Assembly (NCBI GenBank): GCA_048213135.1 | Contig: PS015010.1 | Coordinates: 1,302,001 to 1,366,000 of the forward strand | DNA: 64,000 nt | Reading direction: 5' to 3' | DNA from: Reclinomonas americana ATCC 50394 | Taxonomy: Eukaryota | Shown here: positions 56,740 to 64,000 of the stretch, piece after piece | Position numbering within the stretch: position 1 is the first letter of the stretch | Layout: every line of letters starts with the position of its first letter | Notes under the pieces: model-generated | Databases searched by the model: none | Seen by the model: only the letters and a program-made list of their open reading frames with translations | Told to the model about the DNA's origin: nothing | Program-made: the position numbers and the translations under genes

Positions 56740-57723
56740 TCATTCCGGGATCTCTACAACCGTCCAGTTCTTGCTCCTTCTGCTGTAGAGGATATGATAA
56801 TCCTTTCCGTGCATGAGTTTATAAGTACGGTAGCCGTTGTAATAAGGCAGTTTAAGCCAGCCGTAATTGTAGATTTCAAATTTGAACACAAAGGCCTGTC
56901 CTGCTTTGATCTCTGCGGGTTGGAATTTTCTCCCGTCATCACTCAGTTGTACCGTTTCATCGCGGTTGCTCTGAATGGTGAGTGCGATCCAGGAAGGGTC
57001 ATTATCGGGTGTTGTCTGCGGAGTATTGGGATTGGGGTTGCCGGGGTTGGCAGGATAAGGATTGGGATTTGTAGGATATGGATTCGGGTTGGTTGGAGTT
57101 GGTGTCGGCGTTGCAGTGCCTGTATTACTGCCGGAATTCGCTGTACCGGGATTGTTGCTGGTTCTGGCCGCATTCCATCCACGTGTAATGGCCGCCAGCC
57201 TGTCGCTTTTCGCAGGATGTGTGTTACTCGCCCTGTCGCTGCCCACAGCACGCATGGCCGCCAGTGCCTGGTCAAGCGTGGCTCCCATCCTGTTCATCAT
57301 ATAACCGGAAAATGCGTCGGCCTCTATTTCTGAAGGAATGGTACTGCCCTGCCCGCTTACTACGTGGTTATAATAGTGATGTCCCATTTCATGCGCCATG
57401 ATGCTGAGACTGGCCCATTTGGTCTTGGCGTACTCATCTATATCTTCCAGGAAATTATTATCATACACGATCCAGCGGCGACCGCCCATAATAGTAGCGT
57501 AGGCATTCTGTATACCGTTCTGTTCACGCAGGTTAAAATTTTCTTTCCACTTGATGGTATCCAGCATATGGTTCACGATTTCCTTTGCCTCATAAACCGA
57601 CTGGAATTTGGTGGTAAGCGACCGGGGCGGAATGATATAGCCACAGGGCGTCAGTTTTTGCGCCGCTGCAAACTGCAGCAGTAAAAAAGTTCCGGCGATT
57701 GAAAAAAGTAAGCGTTTCATCAT
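56740..57723 (-). CDS. secreted HExxH metallopeptidase (M48-like) with Pro/Asn-rich linker
   Basis: signal peptide, QNAYA, AHEMGH, EIEADAF, THP...R; (NPNPYP)n linker. Confidence 0.8.
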   Translation of the reverse strand: MMKRLLFSIAGTFLLLQFAAAQKLTPCGYIIPPRSLTTKFQSVYEAKEIVNHMLDTIKWKENFNLREQNGIQNAYATIMGGRRWIVYDNNFLEDIDEYAKTKWASLSIMAHEMGHHYYNHVVSGQGSTIPSEIEADAFSGYMMNRMGATLDQALAAMRAVGSDRASNTHPAKSDRLAAITRGWNAARTSNNPGTANSGSNTGTATPTPTPTNPNPYPTNPNPYPANPGNPNPNTPQTTPDNDPSWIALTIQSNRDETVQLSDDGRKFQPAEIKAGQAFVFKFEIYNYGWLKLPYYNGYRTYKLMHGKDYHILYSRRSKNWTVVEIPE

Positions 57724-57812: not shown

Positions 57813-58859
57813 TTATGCCACTTCTGCCAGTTTATTGAACAGCGTATCCATTTCATTGTCGAGGTAAGACTGGACCAGGTTCACATACCGGTAAAAGGAC
57901 TTGCTGTCGCTGGCATGACCGGATATTTTTTTCACCACATGCTCTTTCATGCCCAGCATCAGCATGGTGGTTATGGCCGTACGGCGCATGGTATGAGAAG
58001 AGATCATATCACAAAAGCGGGTTGGGTCTGCCGGCGCCTGTACACCTACTCCCCTCCTCGACCTTTGCCTTGTTATGGCCTGTGTCCAGCCCGCCAGGCA
58101 GGCTATCTCTTTGAGTTGTGCATTGAAACGGCTAAGCGGTATAGGCGGGAAGATCGCTTTTCTCCGCTTCGCTGTTTCCCTGAACCGCCGGATGATCTCC
58201 ATGCAATAGGCTGGCAATTTAATACGTACCGCAGCCGAAGTTTTGATACTGGTAACAGGCAGATAATGCTGCCCTCCTACTTCTTCGATGTCGGAGAATT
58301 TAATGGCAAACAGGTCCGATACCCGCAGGGCTACCGTACATCCGAATACGAAGATGTCTTTGGTTTTACGTAATGACCGGCTCAGCGATGCGTCAAATTC
58401 GTGGTTATTGATGAGAAATTGTAACTGTTCCGGCATCAGTGTTACAATTGGAACTTCCTCCTTGCGTACATAAAATGATTTATGGAAGTTACCCGCAGGA
58501 ATGCCGAGGTCCTTTTCAATAAAGTTGAAAAAGATGCGGACGACCTTGATCACGGCGCCGGTATAATTATCGTAGCATTGTTTTTCCTGGTAGAGATAGG
58601 CGGTAAAATCGAGGTAGAATTTTTTCCAGTAATTGCGCTCTGCAGTTATCAGCCGTTTATTGGTATTGCCTGCGGGCTTTATCCGGATAATGGCGCCCGT
58701 CTTCAGTTCATACGCTTTAAGGTAGCTTAAAACATACCTGTAATTAACCACCGTTTGCGGGCGGATGCGGCCGCCATCGGGTTTTAGTCTTTTACCATTA
58801 AGGCTGTAGCGGATGAACTTTTCGAAGAGGGGAATAAGCGGGTATTCTTTTGTAGGCAT
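57813..58859 (-). CDS. tyrosine recombinase (site-specific integrase/invertase)
   Basis: intact catalytic set: ALRVSDL (R), IKT (K), SHTMRR (HxxR), SGH, FYRY (Y). Confidence 0.93.
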   Translation of the reverse strand: MPTKEYPLIPLFEKFIRYSLNGKRLKPDGGRIRPQTVVNYRYVLSYLKAYELKTGAIIRIKPAGNTNKRLITAERNYWKKFYLDFTAYLYQEKQCYDNYTGAVIKVVRIFFNFIEKDLGIPAGNFHKSFYVRKEEVPIVTLMPEQLQFLINNHEFDASLSRSLRKTKDIFVFGCTVALRVSDLFAIKFSDIEEVGGQHYLPVTSIKTSAAVRIKLPAYCMEIIRRFRETAKRRKAIFPPIPLSRFNAQLKEIACLAGWTQAITRQRSRRGVGVQAPADPTRFCDMISSHTMRRTAITTMLMLGMKEHVVKKISGHASDSKSFYRYVNLVQSYLDNEMDTLFNKLAEVA

Positions 58860-58970
58860 AAGATGGATTTTTGAGATTGAAAAATATTCACTTTTAGAGC
58901 GATTATGTTAAATTACAACAGAACCGGCTCTTTGAAAAGCAAACCTGCAAAGGACTTGAGCAGAATGATC

Positions 58971-58997
58971 ATTATCCCTTTGGGATGATGATGCCGG
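58971..58997 (+). repeat. left inverted repeat (27 bp), candidate recombination site
   Basis: attatccctttgggatgatgatgccgg, exact reverse complement of 62385-62411. Confidence 0.92.
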
Positions 58998-59953
58998 GGA
59001 GGGTGGCCAGTATCAGCGGTATTGATTATAAATTCACGGTTAATGGACAGGAAAAGGAAACTGACCTCAACAAAAATATCACTTCTGCTCCGTACTGGAT
59101 GTATGACAGCAGGGTGGCAAAGAGGTGGAATGTAGATCCGAGGCCAAATGTGTCGATAAGCCCTTATAATTGTTTCGCTGCAAATCCCATATGGTTTTCT
59201 GATATCAAAGGAGATACGATCAGGGGAGAGAACGGCTTCGATAAAGCAGCTTACAGGGCTGCATTGGTAGAACAGGTCGCTCTATTGGAACAATACAAAA
59301 AGGATGGCTTACCGGGTGGAATGGCAGGGAATAATAAAAATCTTAACTTGAAGTTAAATGAAATGAAGGCGGCATTGAAAACATATGATGCGCTGGAAGC
59401 AAGAAAAGATATCATTGTAGTCAGGAAAGGAGATCCGGCAACAAATGCGAATGAAGCCTGGACTAATTTCAATGTTGCACAGAATGCGCCGCGGATTGAT
59501 ATTGGAACAAGCGTTAAGGATGGGGATTATTTTTTAATTTCACATGAAATGCAGCACGTGGAAGATTATTATGAAGGACGATTCTCATTTGCTGCAGATG
59601 GATCAGGAGGCATCCTGGTTGACATATATGATGAGGTAGGCCCCAACAACAGGCAGGAAATTATTTCATCGGGTATTGTTGCGGCATCCCCTAATCCAAC
59701 GACCTGGACCGCGACAACTTTACCAAACAAAGTGTTTGGAGACGGCACAACACCCTATAACACACTTCCTAAGGATAAGCGGGTATTGTCTGATGCGAAA
59801 TGGTCAACTTTGTTAAAAGCAGAAACAGTAAAAAGTGTTAATGAGAATAAACCACAACCTCACTATTATGTAGGGTGGGAAAAAGACCGGGCTGAAGCCG
59901 AAGCGGCAAAAAAAGCGGCAGATGAAAAAGCAAAGGCTGAAGGTCCCAAGTAA
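58985..59953 (+). CDS. orphan Rhs C-terminal cassette (core end plus HExxH metallopeptidase-like toxin)
   Basis: reads (NDHYPFG)MMMPGR...NGQEKE...YDSRVAKRWNVDP...NPIWFSDIKGD, then a domain with SHEMQH; no Rhs body upstream (in-frame TAG at 58895-58897). Confidence 0.85.
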   Translation: MMMPGRVASISGIDYKFTVNGQEKETDLNKNITSAPYWMYDSRVAKRWNVDPRPNVSISPYNCFAANPIWFSDIKGDTIRGENGFDKAAYRAALVEQVALLEQYKKDGLPGGMAGNNKNLNLKLNEMKAALKTYDALEARKDIIVVRKGDPATNANEAWTNFNVAQNAPRIDIGTSVKDGDYFLISHEMQHVEDYYEGRFSFAADGSGGILVDIYDEVGPNNRQEIISSGIVAASPNPTTWTATTLPNKVFGDGTTPYNTLPKDKRVLSDAKWSTLLKAETVKSVNENKPQPHYYVGWEKDRAEAEAAKKAADEKAKAEGPK

Positions 59954-59962
59954 CAGCTCAAT

Positions 59963-60538
59963 ATGAAAAGAAATATAGTATTCATCGTGTACTGGTTGCT
60001 TATACCCGTACTTGTACAGTCCCAGGTAAAGGAAGGTCTTTACCTGGGTGAGAATAGCAGCGGAAGGTTACTGGTCAAAGCCGACAATACTGCGGAATTT
60101 TTTATGAGATATGAAACATCGGTATCTTTTAAATTCAAATGCAGGATAATAACGACAACGGACTCGTCTTTCCAGCTTGAGAACATAGGCGAGGTTAAAG
60201 ACAAAATTACCCAGCGTAAGAAAAAGAACAGAAGCAATGAAGTGTCAGTTAACTTCTACGCAATAGATATCGCAGGTCAAAGTTCGCCGGTTTCTGTAAA
60301 TTATGAGTTGATGTCCTGTTCGGATCAAGGAAGCGGAAGCAAAACATGCATCTGTTTTTTTTATAACAACAGGCTTTATTGCCATATTGTGAATACCAGG
60401 CAAAACGACATTTCGATATATATAGATGCAGCCAATTCTTTCCTGATAAAAAGCTGGAAGATAAGCGGAGACAGGCTGATACCTTATATAAATGGCAGAA
60501 TGACCGACAAGTGGATACTCAGGCGGCAGCATAATTAA
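59963..60538 (+). CDS. putative immunity protein for the orphan cassette, secreted
   Basis: starts 9 bp after the toxin stop, signal peptide, AT-rich; role inferred from position. Confidence 0.6.
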   Translation: MKRNIVFIVYWLLIPVLVQSQVKEGLYLGENSSGRLLVKADNTAEFFMRYETSVSFKFKCRIITTTDSSFQLENIGEVKDKITQRKKKNRSNEVSVNFYAIDIAGQSSPVSVNYELMSCSDQGSGSKTCICFFYNNRLYCHIVNTRQNDISIYIDAANSFLIKSWKISGDRLIPYINGRMTDKWILRRQHN

Positions 60539-60607
60539 AGTGACTTAAATCATGTATCTAACCCTGGATTTTTCGTTGTAAACAGATTGCCTTATTGATC
60601 AGCCAAC

Positions 60608-61324
60608 TCATTTCAGTTTTATAAGTGTTCCAGCCCGTTGCCTTTTTCTTTTGTCGCAGGGTTTGGAAGGCGCTTCAAATAAATCAATGTTCCTGCTATT
60701 GTTTTTTACAAAAGTGAAGTCATATTTCTTGCCTTCAATCTCCAGTACTATGCCGTTATAATATTTCCCGCAATCAATAAATGTGTAAATATGTTTTTGA
60801 CCGATAATATTATTATCTTTTATTAATGTACCACTATTACTTAAAAGTACACTTGAATACGACTTGAACCCTTTTTCTTCAAGAAGCCTGATATCAAAAA
60901 TCCCAGACAGGCATAATTTATTGATAGAATCAACTATTACCTGGGCGTCGCCAGAAGAGGAATGGGTTATGATAAAAGATATTGGTTCTGCTTTGCCAGA
61001 AGCTCCCGTTCTTTTTATCGACAAAAAAGCAGGATCAGAACCAGGCAGAATTTTTCCTTCACATTTCTTTAAAACCTCATCAGCATAAAAACATTTTTTT
61101 GCTGCATCCAGGAAAAAAGTCTGGTACTCAATCTGAACTGCGCTATAAGCATTAAACTGGTTATCGTCTGTAAATTCAAGAAGGATAAACTCTCCTTTAT
61201 ATGAAGAAGGGAATCCTCCCTTCTTCATATACCTGATATAATCGGTGTTTAAATAGTAGGTATTTGCCCGGACAATATATATGTTCAGTACAAACAACAG
61301 CAACAACAAACGCTTCTTTCGCAT
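60608..61324 (-). CDS. putative immunity protein for the attached Rhs toxin, secreted
   Basis: directly downstream of the Rhs gene, signal peptide MRKKRLLLLLFV, AT-rich; role inferred from position. Confidence 0.6.
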   Translation of the reverse strand: MRKKRLLLLLFVLNIYIVRANTYYLNTDYIRYMKKGGFPSSYKGEFILLEFTDDNQFNAYSAVQIEYQTFFLDAAKKCFYADEVLKKCEGKILPGSDPAFLSIKRTGASGKAEPISFIITHSSSGDAQVIVDSINKLCLSGIFDIRLLEEKGFKSYSSVLLSNSGTLIKDNNIIGQKHIYTFIDCGKYYNGIVLEIEGKKYDFTFVKNNSRNIDLFEAPSKPCDKRKRQRAGTLIKLK

Positions 61325-61347
61325 GGGTACATTTTATTCTTTACTTG

Positions 61348-64000
61348 TTACGGCCCACCTGAAGGAGGTACCGGGGTTGCGGGTGCTGTAGATGCCGGGG
61401 CCGGTGGCGTTGGTTTTTTAACATTTTTCCTTACCTCGGTTACCCGGTATTCTGTTATGTCGGCATAACTCATAGGCACATTTGTATCGTCGGATAACTT
61501 GTCCGGAGAATAATAGAACTTATTTTCTGTCAGGTTATCGCCATCAGCACCAGGCTCTCCCGGATCATGATATGAAACCGCATTGTCAAGATAAGAAAAA
61601 TAATTACCATTAGCGTCAGTTCCCATTCCTACTATCACAACAAAGTGCTGAGTTTTAACATTGTAGTTTTTAAATTTTGAAGTCAACACGCCACCATCCG
61701 GCTCAGCAGCGGTTACTTCAGTTAGTCCAACCATTATGGGCTCACCATTCTGGAGCGATTCTTTGATAGCAAGTATGCCTTTTACATATTCTTCTTTCAA
61801 GTTGGGTTTCTTATACCGTTTCTGAAGTACATTATCGGCGTGCATGGTTATTTGCTGACTTGGCCCCACAGCTGCAACACCGGCATCTTTCAATTGTGTA
61901 TCTGCTGCTTTCTTGCAATTTCTTCCGCAAGCTGCGTAGGTACGTAATGCGGCGCCTCCTGTAACATCAGGCACATCTGTCCATGCGTCTGACAATGCAT
62001 AACTATTGGTATTAATATCGTCAACGGTACCCGCAGAAATGTTGGTCTGCACAGCTTTAAGTGTTTGGGTCTTAACAAAATCATCACTTACAATCCGTTG
62101 TTCATTACTTGTGCCGTATTTTCCAATCAATGTTCCGTTTGTGGTATAATACTCCTCAAGCCCATCAAGATCTACACACCATATGGGTTTATTACCCGCA
62201 AACTGGTAAGGGGTGTACCAGGGATATGACTGAGTCAGCGGATCAACGCTCAGGAACTTGCCCAGGCGGGGATCGTACATCCGCATACCATAATCCTGAA
62301 CATTTCCGTTCCCTTTCAGTTCATTGTCGTTTTCTTTACCATTAAATCCATACCTGTACTGATTTGAGGCTGCAAATTTCCTTTCCGGCATCATCATCCC
62401 AAAGGGATAATAGTCATTTGCGTTAATAACATCTGCCGTATAATAGTCAGCTATGCCATCAGGAGTATTGCTCACTTTTACATAAATAGGATCGCATTGT
62501 GGTGGCGGACCTCCCGGTGGCGGTGGCGCACATGGCGGATATACCCAGGTATATTCTCCATCATCTACCTGGAATTTCCTGTCAGATACGGTTACCAGTA
62601 CATTGCTCAAATGATTAGTGAGCTCAAAGAACTTCTTCCCTCTTTCAAAAACAGTCAATCCTGAACCGGCTGGCGGATTCTGCACATCGCGGTTCACATT
62701 GAACACGCCTATACGCGTACTGCCATATAGGTGTACCTCACTCTGGGTAAGGTGTCCGCTATTGAGGTTTGACCGCTTCTCATATACTGCCATTATATTC
62801 CCGCTCGCATCTTTTACATACCAGGTAGTCAGTCCGTCTACTGTTTTACTTATACGGTTGCCGGCGGCATCATAGGTATAACTGATAACGTACCCTACAC
62901 TTCCCGATCCTTTATTCAGGGACTTTATTTTACCATAAACGGTCCAGGTTATGCCGCTTATATCCTCCTTATCATCCTTGGTCATGTTGCCAATCGCGTC
63001 ATATCCATAGTTATCATCCGGCTGATTGTCGACGTCATCAGCACTGTAGGTACTGCTTACGGCATCCTTAACATGACGCAGGCGGTTGTTGACCAGTTTA
63101 CCCGATTGTATGTTATAGCCGTAAGTAAGGTTATCCATAAGATTACCATCAGCACCGTTACGTTTATAGGTTTTGATATTGCCGTTGGCATCGTAAGTGA
63201 TATCCTCCCTGTAAGCATTGGTAGCCGATACGTTCCAACTGTTTGTGGCAATATTTAAACCCTTATACGTACTCATCTTGGTCAGGCGGTTCAGCTGATC
63301 ATAACGATAAGTGTACAGCAAGGCCCCTTCCTGTGCACTGGTGGTGGTAAACTTGCCGATATTGACACTCATTGCCGAGATATTACCATTATAAAGTCCT
63401 ACGAAACCAAATCCCGCAGCGGCAGGGTTAGCAAAAGGCTTAACGGAATTATCAATTGGTTTATAGTCGAATTGCCCCTGGGTTTCATTCTGGAAATAGT
63501 GCAGCGCATAACCAAATGCGTCCCTGGCCACATAGCCATTGACACCGCCCGGTATACCATCTGCCCCCATGTCATGCAAACCATCGCCGATGGCAGAGGT
63601 ATTTACCCCTTTAATCCACCCCTGCAGGGTATAACTGTAATCCAGCCCCTGCACCTGCTGTTGTCCAAGTACAATACGCGACAAAGGACCGTGCCGGTAA
63701 TAGGCATAACTGGCATCCCGTTCCCAAACCAGGCTATCATGGCTGGTGTATACGTCTGTAAGCTTATTCTCCGCATCGTACGCATAGCGATGGTAGAACT
63801 GGTCGGCCGGACTTACCCAGGCCTGTGCGGAAGAACTGTAATAACCGGGCTGGTAAGTTACCATGTTCACTTTACCACTGATAAGATCATAGTTGTAAGC
63901 TATTTTCTTATACCTGTTATCGCTGGTGTTCATGATATTGCTGTAATACTGGCTGCTGCCATAGTCCTGCAACAATGTATCCACATTACCATGTATATCA
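61348..64000 (-). CDS. Rhs/YD-repeat polymorphic toxin with papain-like (C39-like) C-terminal domain; 5' part outside window
   Basis: YD repeats (YDQLNRL, YDANGNI, YDAAGNR), DYYPFG, YGFNGKE, YDPRLGKFLSVDP, NKPIWCVDLDGL, then NC...HFVVIVG...D; frame open to window edge. Confidence 0.93.
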   Translation of the reverse strand, partial: DIHGNVDTLLQDYGSSQYYSNIMNTSDNRYKKIAYNYDLISGKVNMVTYQPGYYSSSAQAWVSPADQFYHRYAYDAENKLTDVYTSHDSLVWERDASYAYYRHGPLSRIVLGQQQVQGLDYSYTLQGWIKGVNTSAIGDGLHDMGADGIPGGVNGYVARDAFGYALHYFQNETQGQFDYKPIDNSVKPFANPAAAGFGFVGLYNGNISAMSVNIGKFTTTSAQEGALLYTYRYDQLNRLTKMSTYKGLNIATNSWNVSATNAYREDITYDANGNIKTYKRNGADGNLMDNLTYGYNIQSGKLVNNRLRHVKDAVSSTYSADDVDNQPDDNYGYDAIGNMTKDDKEDISGITWTVYGKIKSLNKGSGSVGYVISYTYDAAGNRISKTVDGLTTWYVKDASGNIMAVYEKRSNLNSGHLTQSEVHLYGSTRIGVFNVNRDVQNPPAGSGLTVFERGKKFFELTNHLSNVLVTVSDRKFQVDDGEYTWVYPPCAPPPPGGPPPQCDPIYVKVSNTPDGIADYYTADVINANDYYPFGMMMPERKFAASNQYRYGFNGKENDNELKGNGNVQDYGMRMYDPRLGKFLSVDPLTQSYPWYTPYQFAGNKPIWCVDLDGLEEYYTTNGTLIGKYGTSNEQRIVSDDFVKTQTLKAVQTNISAGTVDDINTNSYALSDAWTDVPDVTGGAALRTYAACGRNCKKAADTQLKDAGVAAVGPSQQITMHADNVLQKRYKKPNLKEEYVKGILAIKESLQNGEPIMVGLTEVTAAEPDGGVLTSKFKNYNVKTQHFVVIVGMGTDANGNYFSYLDNAVSYHDPGEPGADGDNLTENKFYYSPDKLSDDTNVPMSYADITEYRVTEVRKNVKKPTPPAPASTAPATPVPPSGGP
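62385..62411 (-). repeat. right inverted repeat (27 bp) inside the Rhs gene, candidate recombination site
   Basis: plus strand ccggcatcatcatcccaaagggataat; encodes YPFGMMMP on the minus strand. Confidence 0.92.

Follow-up and report, generated by a model that had tools for sequence, protein, structure and literature searches.

The 64,000-nucleotide (nt) stretch of DNA analysed here, called the window below (Reclinomonas americana ATCC 50394 assembly GCA_048213135.1, contig PS015010.1, positions 1,302,001 to 1,366,000), raises the question of why two otherwise dissimilar Rhs toxin cassettes carry one short coding motif in identical letters and opposite orientations beside a tyrosine recombinase gene. 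The answer that we favour, with a probability of about 0.8, is that the repeat is a recombinase-driven inversion site, the core pair of an Rhs toxin shufflon. The 24-mer TAT CCC TTT GGG ATG ATG ATG CCG occurs at 58973-58996 on the plus strand and at 62386-62409 on the minus strand, and no third copy was found in the 64-kb window with up to three mismatches allowed (0 expected from 100 shuffles). The inverted repeat around it is 39 nt long and 90% complementary (58964-59002 and 62380-62418), and comparison of its two arms gives an exact common core of 27 nt (58971-58997 and 62385-62411). Both copies translate as YPFGMMMP in one and the same frame (NDHYPFGMMMPGR and NDYYPFGMMMPER), the left one in a silent toxin cassette on the plus strand and the right one in an Rhs gene on the minus strand.

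The initial annotation had noted that all five degenerate codons (Y, P, F, G and P) are the same in both copies, and this was borne out when the frames were read and the 24-mer was found twice. It had also described the adjoining Rhs core ends as very different and a recent duplication of the whole cassette as unlikely, and our comparison agreed on both points. Only 32 of 84 residues are common to the two cassettes, eight of which are the motif, and past the Rhs core end the two toxin tips showed no significant similarity. Beside a core matching at 23/23 positions, DNA identity is at background level (over 120 nt on either side, 0.48 upstream and 0.57 downstream); the motif is therefore an island of identity and not part of a recent whole-cassette duplicate.

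The silent (orphan) C-terminal cassette (58973..59953, plus strand) runs for 326 open codons from the motif through the Rhs core end and a toxin domain, and a stop codon lies 25 codons upstream of the motif. Directly after it, a 191-aa open reading frame (ORF; 59963..60538, plus strand) is a putative cognate immunity gene, judged by position only. On the minus strand, the Rhs frame (883 aa) extends without interruption from 64000 to its stop codon at 61348 and is composed of the constant Rhs body with YD repeats (62410..64000, open to the window end, with its 5' part beyond it) and the C-terminal cassette now attached to it (61348..62409, 353 codons from the motif). The right repeat copy lies inside the Rhs-associated core domain of this expressed gene. 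NCBIfam model TIGR03696 (Rhs-associated core) matched residues 530-614 of the 883-aa frame (48.3 bits against a cut-off of 32.5, E=1.1e-12), and this domain precedes the variable C-terminal domain, as in Rhs / YD-repeat polymorphic toxins. The RHS_repeat match was sub-threshold (18.2 against a cut-off of 22), and the N-terminal part of the Rhs protein is outside the window. A 238-aa ORF (60608..61324, minus strand) directly follows the expressed Rhs gene and, again by position only, is a putative cognate immunity gene. No Pfam or NCBIfam family was found for either toxin domain or either putative immunity protein; a papain-family match of the attached cassette (E=0.039) was below the cut-off and was not used.

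The segment between the repeats consists of two tail-to-tail units, each made up of a toxin tip and the ORF that follows it. The inverted repeats lie within coding sequence, in the same frame, and enclose alternative 3' gene parts, as a shufflon or a gene-altering programmed inversion requires. Since YPFGMMMP is read in the same frame in both copies, a flip would join the silent tip in frame to the Rhs body. In the mechanism that we propose, the recombinase would exchange strands within a core of roughly 22-27 bp that spells Y-P-F-G-M-x-M-P, and the exchange would invert the 3.4-kb segment with its two tail-to-tail toxin-plus-immunity cassettes. Because both cores are read in the same frame, each orientation would give an intact Rhs protein with a different C-terminal toxin, and both putative immunity genes would stay in the cell. 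What the sequences show is the anatomy, the common frame, the intact catalytic residues and the comparative signatures; that this recombinase acts on this core, that the inversion happens today, and at which place within the core the strands are cut, we infer.

The recombinase gene (57813..58859, minus strand, 348 aa) is divergent from the silent cassette and starts 114 nt from the silent repeat copy. Its product contains the PF00589 (Phage_integrase) catalytic domain (41 bits against a cut-off of 27.1, E=2.3e-10). Across an alignment of 41 homologues, R179, K206, H289, R292, H315 and Y325 are conserved in 98% or more, and we take them, from the usual order of the motif, to fill the catalytic roles R-K-H-R-H/W-Y. 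NCBIfam gave weak Xer-type matches only, all under their cut-offs; the archaeal XerA / integron-integrase model reached 38.6 bits against a cut-off of 220. No sequence relative was found in PDB at E<=0.001.

A scan of genome contigs with this single recombinase returned one locus (L001), from a metagenome-assembled genome (MAG), with a recombinase 63% identical to that of the window. The gene order is as in the window, and an 87-nt, 97% inverted repeat begins at the same place; its codons differ from those of the window (TAT CCT TTC GGA ATG AGT ATG). Homologues of the recombinase (E<=1e-40) were present in 35 of 401 genomes sampled from the family of this MAG, and a phylum-wide sample of 401 genomes contained nine positive ones, five of them already in the family sample. 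We retrieved 39 wide regions around the homologues, and then longer views and 20 control regions. The results showed that 29 of 41 loci have a (Y/H)PFG site at a distance of 93-281 nt from the recombinase gene and three more have one 1.6-1.8 kb away, and that the recombinase-proximal site is either divergent from the gene start, as in the window, or just past the gene stop. A dedicated recombinase gene adjoining the sites, as is characteristic of a shufflon, is found in the window, and the association is conserved in its relatives. The exact 27-nt core of the window was present in nine metagenome contigs, and a recombinase homologue adjoins it wherever the contig is long enough (L102, L103, L107 and L110/L111); four of the nine are too short for the linkage to be judged, and L106 is the reverse view of L107. 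In L110/L111, a main site and an inverted orphan site accompany a recombinase 46% identical to that of the window; we count this locus and L001 as independent recurrences of the arrangement.

The boundaries of homology at these sites are sharp. In eight recombinase-linked loci with a long Rhs frame, main and orphan copies start to match 0-10 nt before the Tyr codon (TAT) in 18 of 19 pairs, the sole exception (116 nt) being in a decayed locus, L076. The second recombinase clade (33-42% identity, with YPFGL-type Rhs genes) has the same edge, at 0-6 nt, at its recombinase-proximal sites. Orphan arrays of the general-recombination type are also present in the same bacterial family and served as recombinase-less controls; in 14 such arrays, each of the 30 pairs extends its homology 15-400 nt upstream, and direct repeats are the only kind seen. 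These controls bear on the possibility that RecA-dependent homologous recombination or gene conversion acts between Rhs core ends in the window, as for enterobacterial Rhs orphans, and that the recombinase is an unrelated neighbour. Activation of Rhs orphans through recombination in the homologous core is known (PMC3967940), and the control arrays are of this kind. For the window we consider this explanation improbable, because the identity is only 27 nt long and starts at one fixed codon in many loci, the recombinase stands so close to the site in most loci, and the inverted arrangement tracks the recombinase.

The core itself is homogeneous within loci. Among 51 within-locus pairs from nine linked loci, the 23-nt core was identical at 23/23 positions in 37, at 22/23 in 13 and at 20/23 in one, and the mean identity of the same pairs was 0.58 upstream and 0.74 downstream. 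Four of 18 control pairs were identical over the core, and all four are long recent duplicates (upstream identity of at least 0.94). These counts exclude sites that are followed by fewer than 100 open codons or lie too close to the end of a contig. Between genomes, the synonymous positions of the motif vary freely: a degenerate YPFGMxMP DNA pattern was found in 83 of 401 genomes (0 in the reversed control), and the exact 23-mer of the window was absent among the matches listed. The core lies in codons that are nearly invariant in the Rhs-associated core domain: protein selection would fix the first and second codon positions, and the need for identical crossover regions would homogenise the synonymous positions within a locus. 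As to the suggestion that codon usage of the motif would separate Rhs genes with and without a recombinase, the outcome is mixed: identity of the string within a locus is a hallmark, and the exact codon string is not, since the loci use CCC/CCT/CCG, TTT/TTC and GGG/GGA/GGC; CCCTTTGGG also occurs, among the matches listed, in the recombinase-less genomes G178 and G078. Site orientation was counted by eye among the matches listed. Seven same-contig clusters have mixed orientation, all in recombinase-positive genomes, and 14 of 15 direct-only clusters are in recombinase-negative genomes (Fisher p=4.7e-5).

It could be argued that the identity of the two copies reflects protein conservation and codon bias only, or that the locus is a dead relic. 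The frequency of the YPFGMxMP pattern among the 401 genomes, the occurrence of CCCTTTGGG in the two recombinase-less genomes and the decayed state of L076 (G082) would fit this. We regard it as very improbable, the least probable of the explanations considered here, because codons vary between loci and yet are identical within linked loci despite flanks at background level, and because the recombinase, both cassettes and both downstream ORFs are intact in the window. Taken together, the edge, the island of identity, the variation between loci and the orientation are four independent signatures which, on comparative grounds, strongly support the motif as the crossover site. The proposal of the initial annotation that the YPFGM coding motif doubles as the recombination site is supported by the linkage to the recombinase, the edge at the Tyr codon, the within-locus homogenised core and the inverted orientation that tracks the recombinase.

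The same annotation had pointed to dyad symmetry in the repeat and read it as inverted binding arms around a short spacer. In the left copy, the 11-nt arms around TTT match at 10 of 11 positions, as it had stated; in the right copy, the five contiguous matches are kept and the total is 8/11, slightly above its figure. The dyad is real in the window. Because the two cuts of a tyrosine recombinase are 6-8 bp apart, the 3-nt TTT is too short to serve as the spacer. When axes with spacers of 6-8 nt were scanned without bias, the best dyad was on the same axis with the 7-nt spacer CNTTYGG and 8-nt arms, which scored 4.64 of 8 in linked loci and 3.63 in controls. Per genome, the mean 8-nt arm score was 4.63 in linked (n=16) against 3.53 in control genomes (n=17; one-sided p=0.0036), and it was 4.43 (n=13) against 3.53 (n=17; one-sided p=0.017) when the window and the two loci retrieved via its core were left out. 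In addition, the outer five positions pair at 2.52 within loci against 2.29 in permuted pairings (p=0.016), and an 11-nt score of 10 is found both in the left copy of the window and in the expressed copy of L074, whose arm letters differ.

These values would suit a recognition element on which two monomers bind inverted arms, at best arms of 8-9 bp around the 7-bp CNTTYGG. We find this doubtful for several reasons. The codons of D-Y-Y-P-F-G-M-x-M force much of the dyad (A-T and T-A via TAT/ATG and GAT/ATG, C-G via CCN/GGN) and also one fixed mismatch, the pair T0-G14, which never matches. The 8-nt arm scores spread from 2.5 to 6 among linked genomes, with 3/8 in L001, the closest relative, and 2.5 in G026; the 11-nt score ranges from 4 to 10 over 50 sites and is 5 in L001. 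The left-arm bases of most silent sites are neither conserved nor within the shared repeat. Linked loci owe their higher score to a greater frequency of GGG and to codons for x = Met or Val, which mirror the Tyr or His codon before the motif centre, and the sharing of these codons within a lineage may account for it. As a recognition feature, the dyad is thus weakly supported by the sequences. In our reading, the site would work asymmetrically, from the Tyr codon rightwards, as do the sfx sites of the R64 shufflon, and the symmetry would be at most a helpful bias.

Loci with more than two sites bear on what else the recombinase may do. The site orientations are +,+,+,-,- in L072 and +,-,-,-,- in L074, and such loci look like shufflons after several inversions. 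L073, which has seven sites, contains a 294-nt spacer between back-to-back sites in two copies, and these adjoin four different cassettes. The sites of this locus (G364:C1:4000-23900) lie in both orientations beside a recombinase, with no long Rhs frame within 20 kb, and it is either an orphan-only array reminiscent of the immunity islands called rAID or an array with its expressed gene elsewhere. These arrays raise the alternative that the main work of the recombinase is to capture toxin-immunity cassettes, excise them as circles and reinsert them at the YPFG core, much as in integrons or rAID, with inversion as a side product. The absence of a long Rhs frame near the seven sites of L073 speaks for it, as do sharp-edged direct orphans (six in L082, three in L096, two in L072 and two in L075) and the pairing of a tyrosine recombinase with orphan immunity arrays and conserved intergenic motifs in the rAID of Bacteroidales (PMC12247911). 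The only two sites of the window are inverted, mixed orientations are what successive inversions in a multi-site shufflon would produce, and no circular or empty-site form was seen; we therefore hold capture as the main activity to be possible but rather unlikely, roughly a one-in-four matter. Capture and inversion are not exclusive modes.

Some relatives of the recombinase stand in other surroundings. At L047 / L068 (G296:C1:3549530-3567945), four recombinase paralogues, 41-42% identical to that of the window, lie within 18 kb in both orientations; none has a (Y/H)PFG site within 2 kb, and the nearest is 3.5 kb from one paralogue. These paralogues may serve another target. Two loci are decayed: in L076 (G082:C2), all four cassettes end 12-25 codons past the motif and there is an inverted duplicate of a 116-nt stretch of the Rhs body, and in L035 (G212:C1) a lone remnant site stands beside the recombinase.

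Traces of the inversion proposed for the window were sought in assemblies. The window is covered by four sequencing runs, as contigs only and at a depth of about 3-7. In run X1 (share 0.93, possibly the sample of origin), the contigs 58511-58997 and 58968-60202, and likewise 60185-62411 and 62382-64000, break at both cores, where they overlap by 30 nt, the length of the 27-nt core and 3 nt of its flank. Apart from these, a single break in X1 shows an overlap, of 18 nt, at a place without a repeat, and one X1 record fits two places. If the Logan graph uses k=31, a 27-nt repeat cannot branch it, and the break would imply a word made up of the orphan left flank, the core and the present cassette. 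The record that fits two places is what a 33-nt junction piece would give, which is suggestive only. Among relatives, the assemblies of L041, L044, L052 and L069 end within 50 nt of a recombinase-proximal core, as do both ends of L077. The L077 contig (G377:C13, 4890 nt) has the core at each of its ends, in inverted orientation, and looks like an isolated invertible segment; L041, which carries the recombinase in the same genome, stops 16 nt inside a core. These contig breaks hint at a flipped junction, again as a suggestion only, and direct sight of the inversion was not achieved.

Several observations weigh against a recombinase-driven inversion site. No flipped junction was found in any read or contig of the four runs, and no joint was listed. 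The break pattern of X1 implies one of the two expected recombinant junctions, at a depth of about 6.5, and the branch argument depends on the k=31 assumed for Logan. In organism C, a contig (X12/X13) spans the left site with the same arrangement as the window; the right site has no cover in X12/X13, which are uninformative there. A 48-nt string of orphan flank plus core gave 0 metagenome matches, and the recombinant flank combination was seen in none of the nine metagenome contigs with the 27-nt core. For nine of the 41 recombinase loci, several of them at contig ends, no (Y/H)PFG site is closer than 2 kb, so the recombinase family may have other targets. Two sharp-edged arrays lack an adjoining recombinase: L082 (G003), at the start of a contig, has seven direct sites, but its assembly contains no homologue of the recombinase (E<=1e-8), and for L096 (G376) the recombinase is on a different contig. 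Finally, the within-locus pairs counted above are not independent of each other, and the linked loci may share ancestry.

A second short element accompanies the silent sites. In the window, a TCTTTGA box lies at 58929..58935 (plus strand), where 44 nt separate it from the Tyr codon of the silent copy. Of 75 orphan sites, 56 are preceded by TCTTTGA at a distance of no more than 70 nt, the background frequency being 0.18 per kb and strand, and a count in the alignment puts it 44-47 nt ahead of most of the 29 recombinase-proximal sites, in both clades. The consensus of the box is about AAGTTCTTTGAA, as seen upstream of the silent sites in L001 and L033-L110, and the box is itself a small dyad (TTC-TTT-GAA). 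Its spacing varies by one or two bases, and a codon-level constraint is therefore not involved. The box may be an accessory recombinase site or part of a promoter; with regard to a Bacteroidetes promoter, no matching -7 element was seen by eye. In Rhs genes of this bacterial family that encode K-x-F-E before L-(S/T)-N-H, the DNA always reads AAG NTC TTT GA, which matches the orphan box. This holds for 9/9 such linked rows and 11/11 such control rows printed, at 114-225 nt before the YPFG site, and the counterpart in the expressed Rhs gene of the window is at about 62623-62634 (minus strand). The same codon choice in genomes with and without the recombinase suggests a constraint at the DNA or RNA level.

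Beyond the window, we lean slightly towards a wider view of this recombinase family. Recombinases of this type from Chitinophagaceae-type Bacteroidota would use the YPFG-codon core as a universal docking point and would shuffle toxin-immunity cassettes by inversion, perhaps also by excision and capture; the AAGTTCTTTGAA box, about 45 bp upstream of silent sites, may be accessory, and the quasi-palindrome imposed by the codons may have made the motif usable.

Downstream of the recombinase, the window encodes at 56740-57723 (minus strand) a protein that looks secreted and whose N-terminal part, resembling an M48 peptidase, is accompanied by a linker rich in Pro, Asn and Thr. In organism C, contigs have 21 additional nt at 57078, within this linker.

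Among the closest known systems is the shufflon of R64 and the IncI1 plasmids, in which the tyrosine recombinase Rci acts on sfx sites in pilV; the sfx sites are asymmetric. As in that shufflon, a dedicated tyrosine recombinase lies beside the array, and inversion between short in-gene repeats would swap in-frame C-terminal segments. Several sites in both orientations would likewise permit multiple inversions, and the conserved part of the site appears to lie on one side only. As far as the systems can be likened by description, the locus differs in its target, an Rhs toxin with an immunity gene and not a pilus adhesin, and in having its core within a widely conserved protein motif. The G segment of phage Mu, the C segment of P1 and the P segment of e14 are inverted by the serine invertases Gin, Cin and Pin, with an enhancer and Fis. 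They have in common with the window two tail-to-tail alternative C-terminal parts, an accessory gene for each and a crossover inside the gene, whereas the enzyme here is a tyrosine recombinase.

Orphan cassettes of Rhs and CDI systems in Salmonella are used via homologous recombination (PMC3967940). Such orphans are direct repeats with long upstream homology that depend on general recombination, unlike the repeats of the window, which are inverted, have an edge at one codon and are attached to a recombinase. The rAID loci of gut Bacteroidales, from the same phylum, have a recombinase upstream of at least two co-oriented, short, low-GC orphan immunity genes (Ross et al. 2019, as cited in PMC12247911). 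They resemble the present system in joining a tyrosine recombinase with arrays derived from interbacterial toxin systems and with conserved intergenic motifs. By the description in that source, rAID arrays are co-oriented, defensive and without a resident Rhs gene, with no in-gene inversion described, and the layout of the window, inverted cassettes beside an Rhs gene, does not fit them. Gene-altering programmed inversions (Milman et al. 2023, PMC9881135) and intragenic invertons (PMC10028968), where inverted repeats in coding sequence produce alternative alleles, belong to the same general class. The terms Rhs, toxin and YD repeat have 0 occurrences in the main texts of these two papers, and in our literature search no report of a recombinase that alters an Rhs gene by inversion came to light.

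The diversity of Rhs and related polymorphic toxins is attributed to general recombination with silent cassettes, a slow process. If the proposed inversion takes place, a reversible dedicated switch would let clonal populations generate differently armed cells in advance, a form of bet-hedging in bacterial warfare, one Rhs gene would gain a switchable arsenal, and a major toxin class would join the short list of proteins altered by programmed inversion. A recombination core guarded by protein-level selection would also be an example of dual coding, and with two sites, one enzyme and about 3.4 kb the system is directly testable. By analogy with the systems compared here, the locus would in functional terms be a shufflon like that of R64/Rci or the Mu G segment, with an Rhs toxin as its target.

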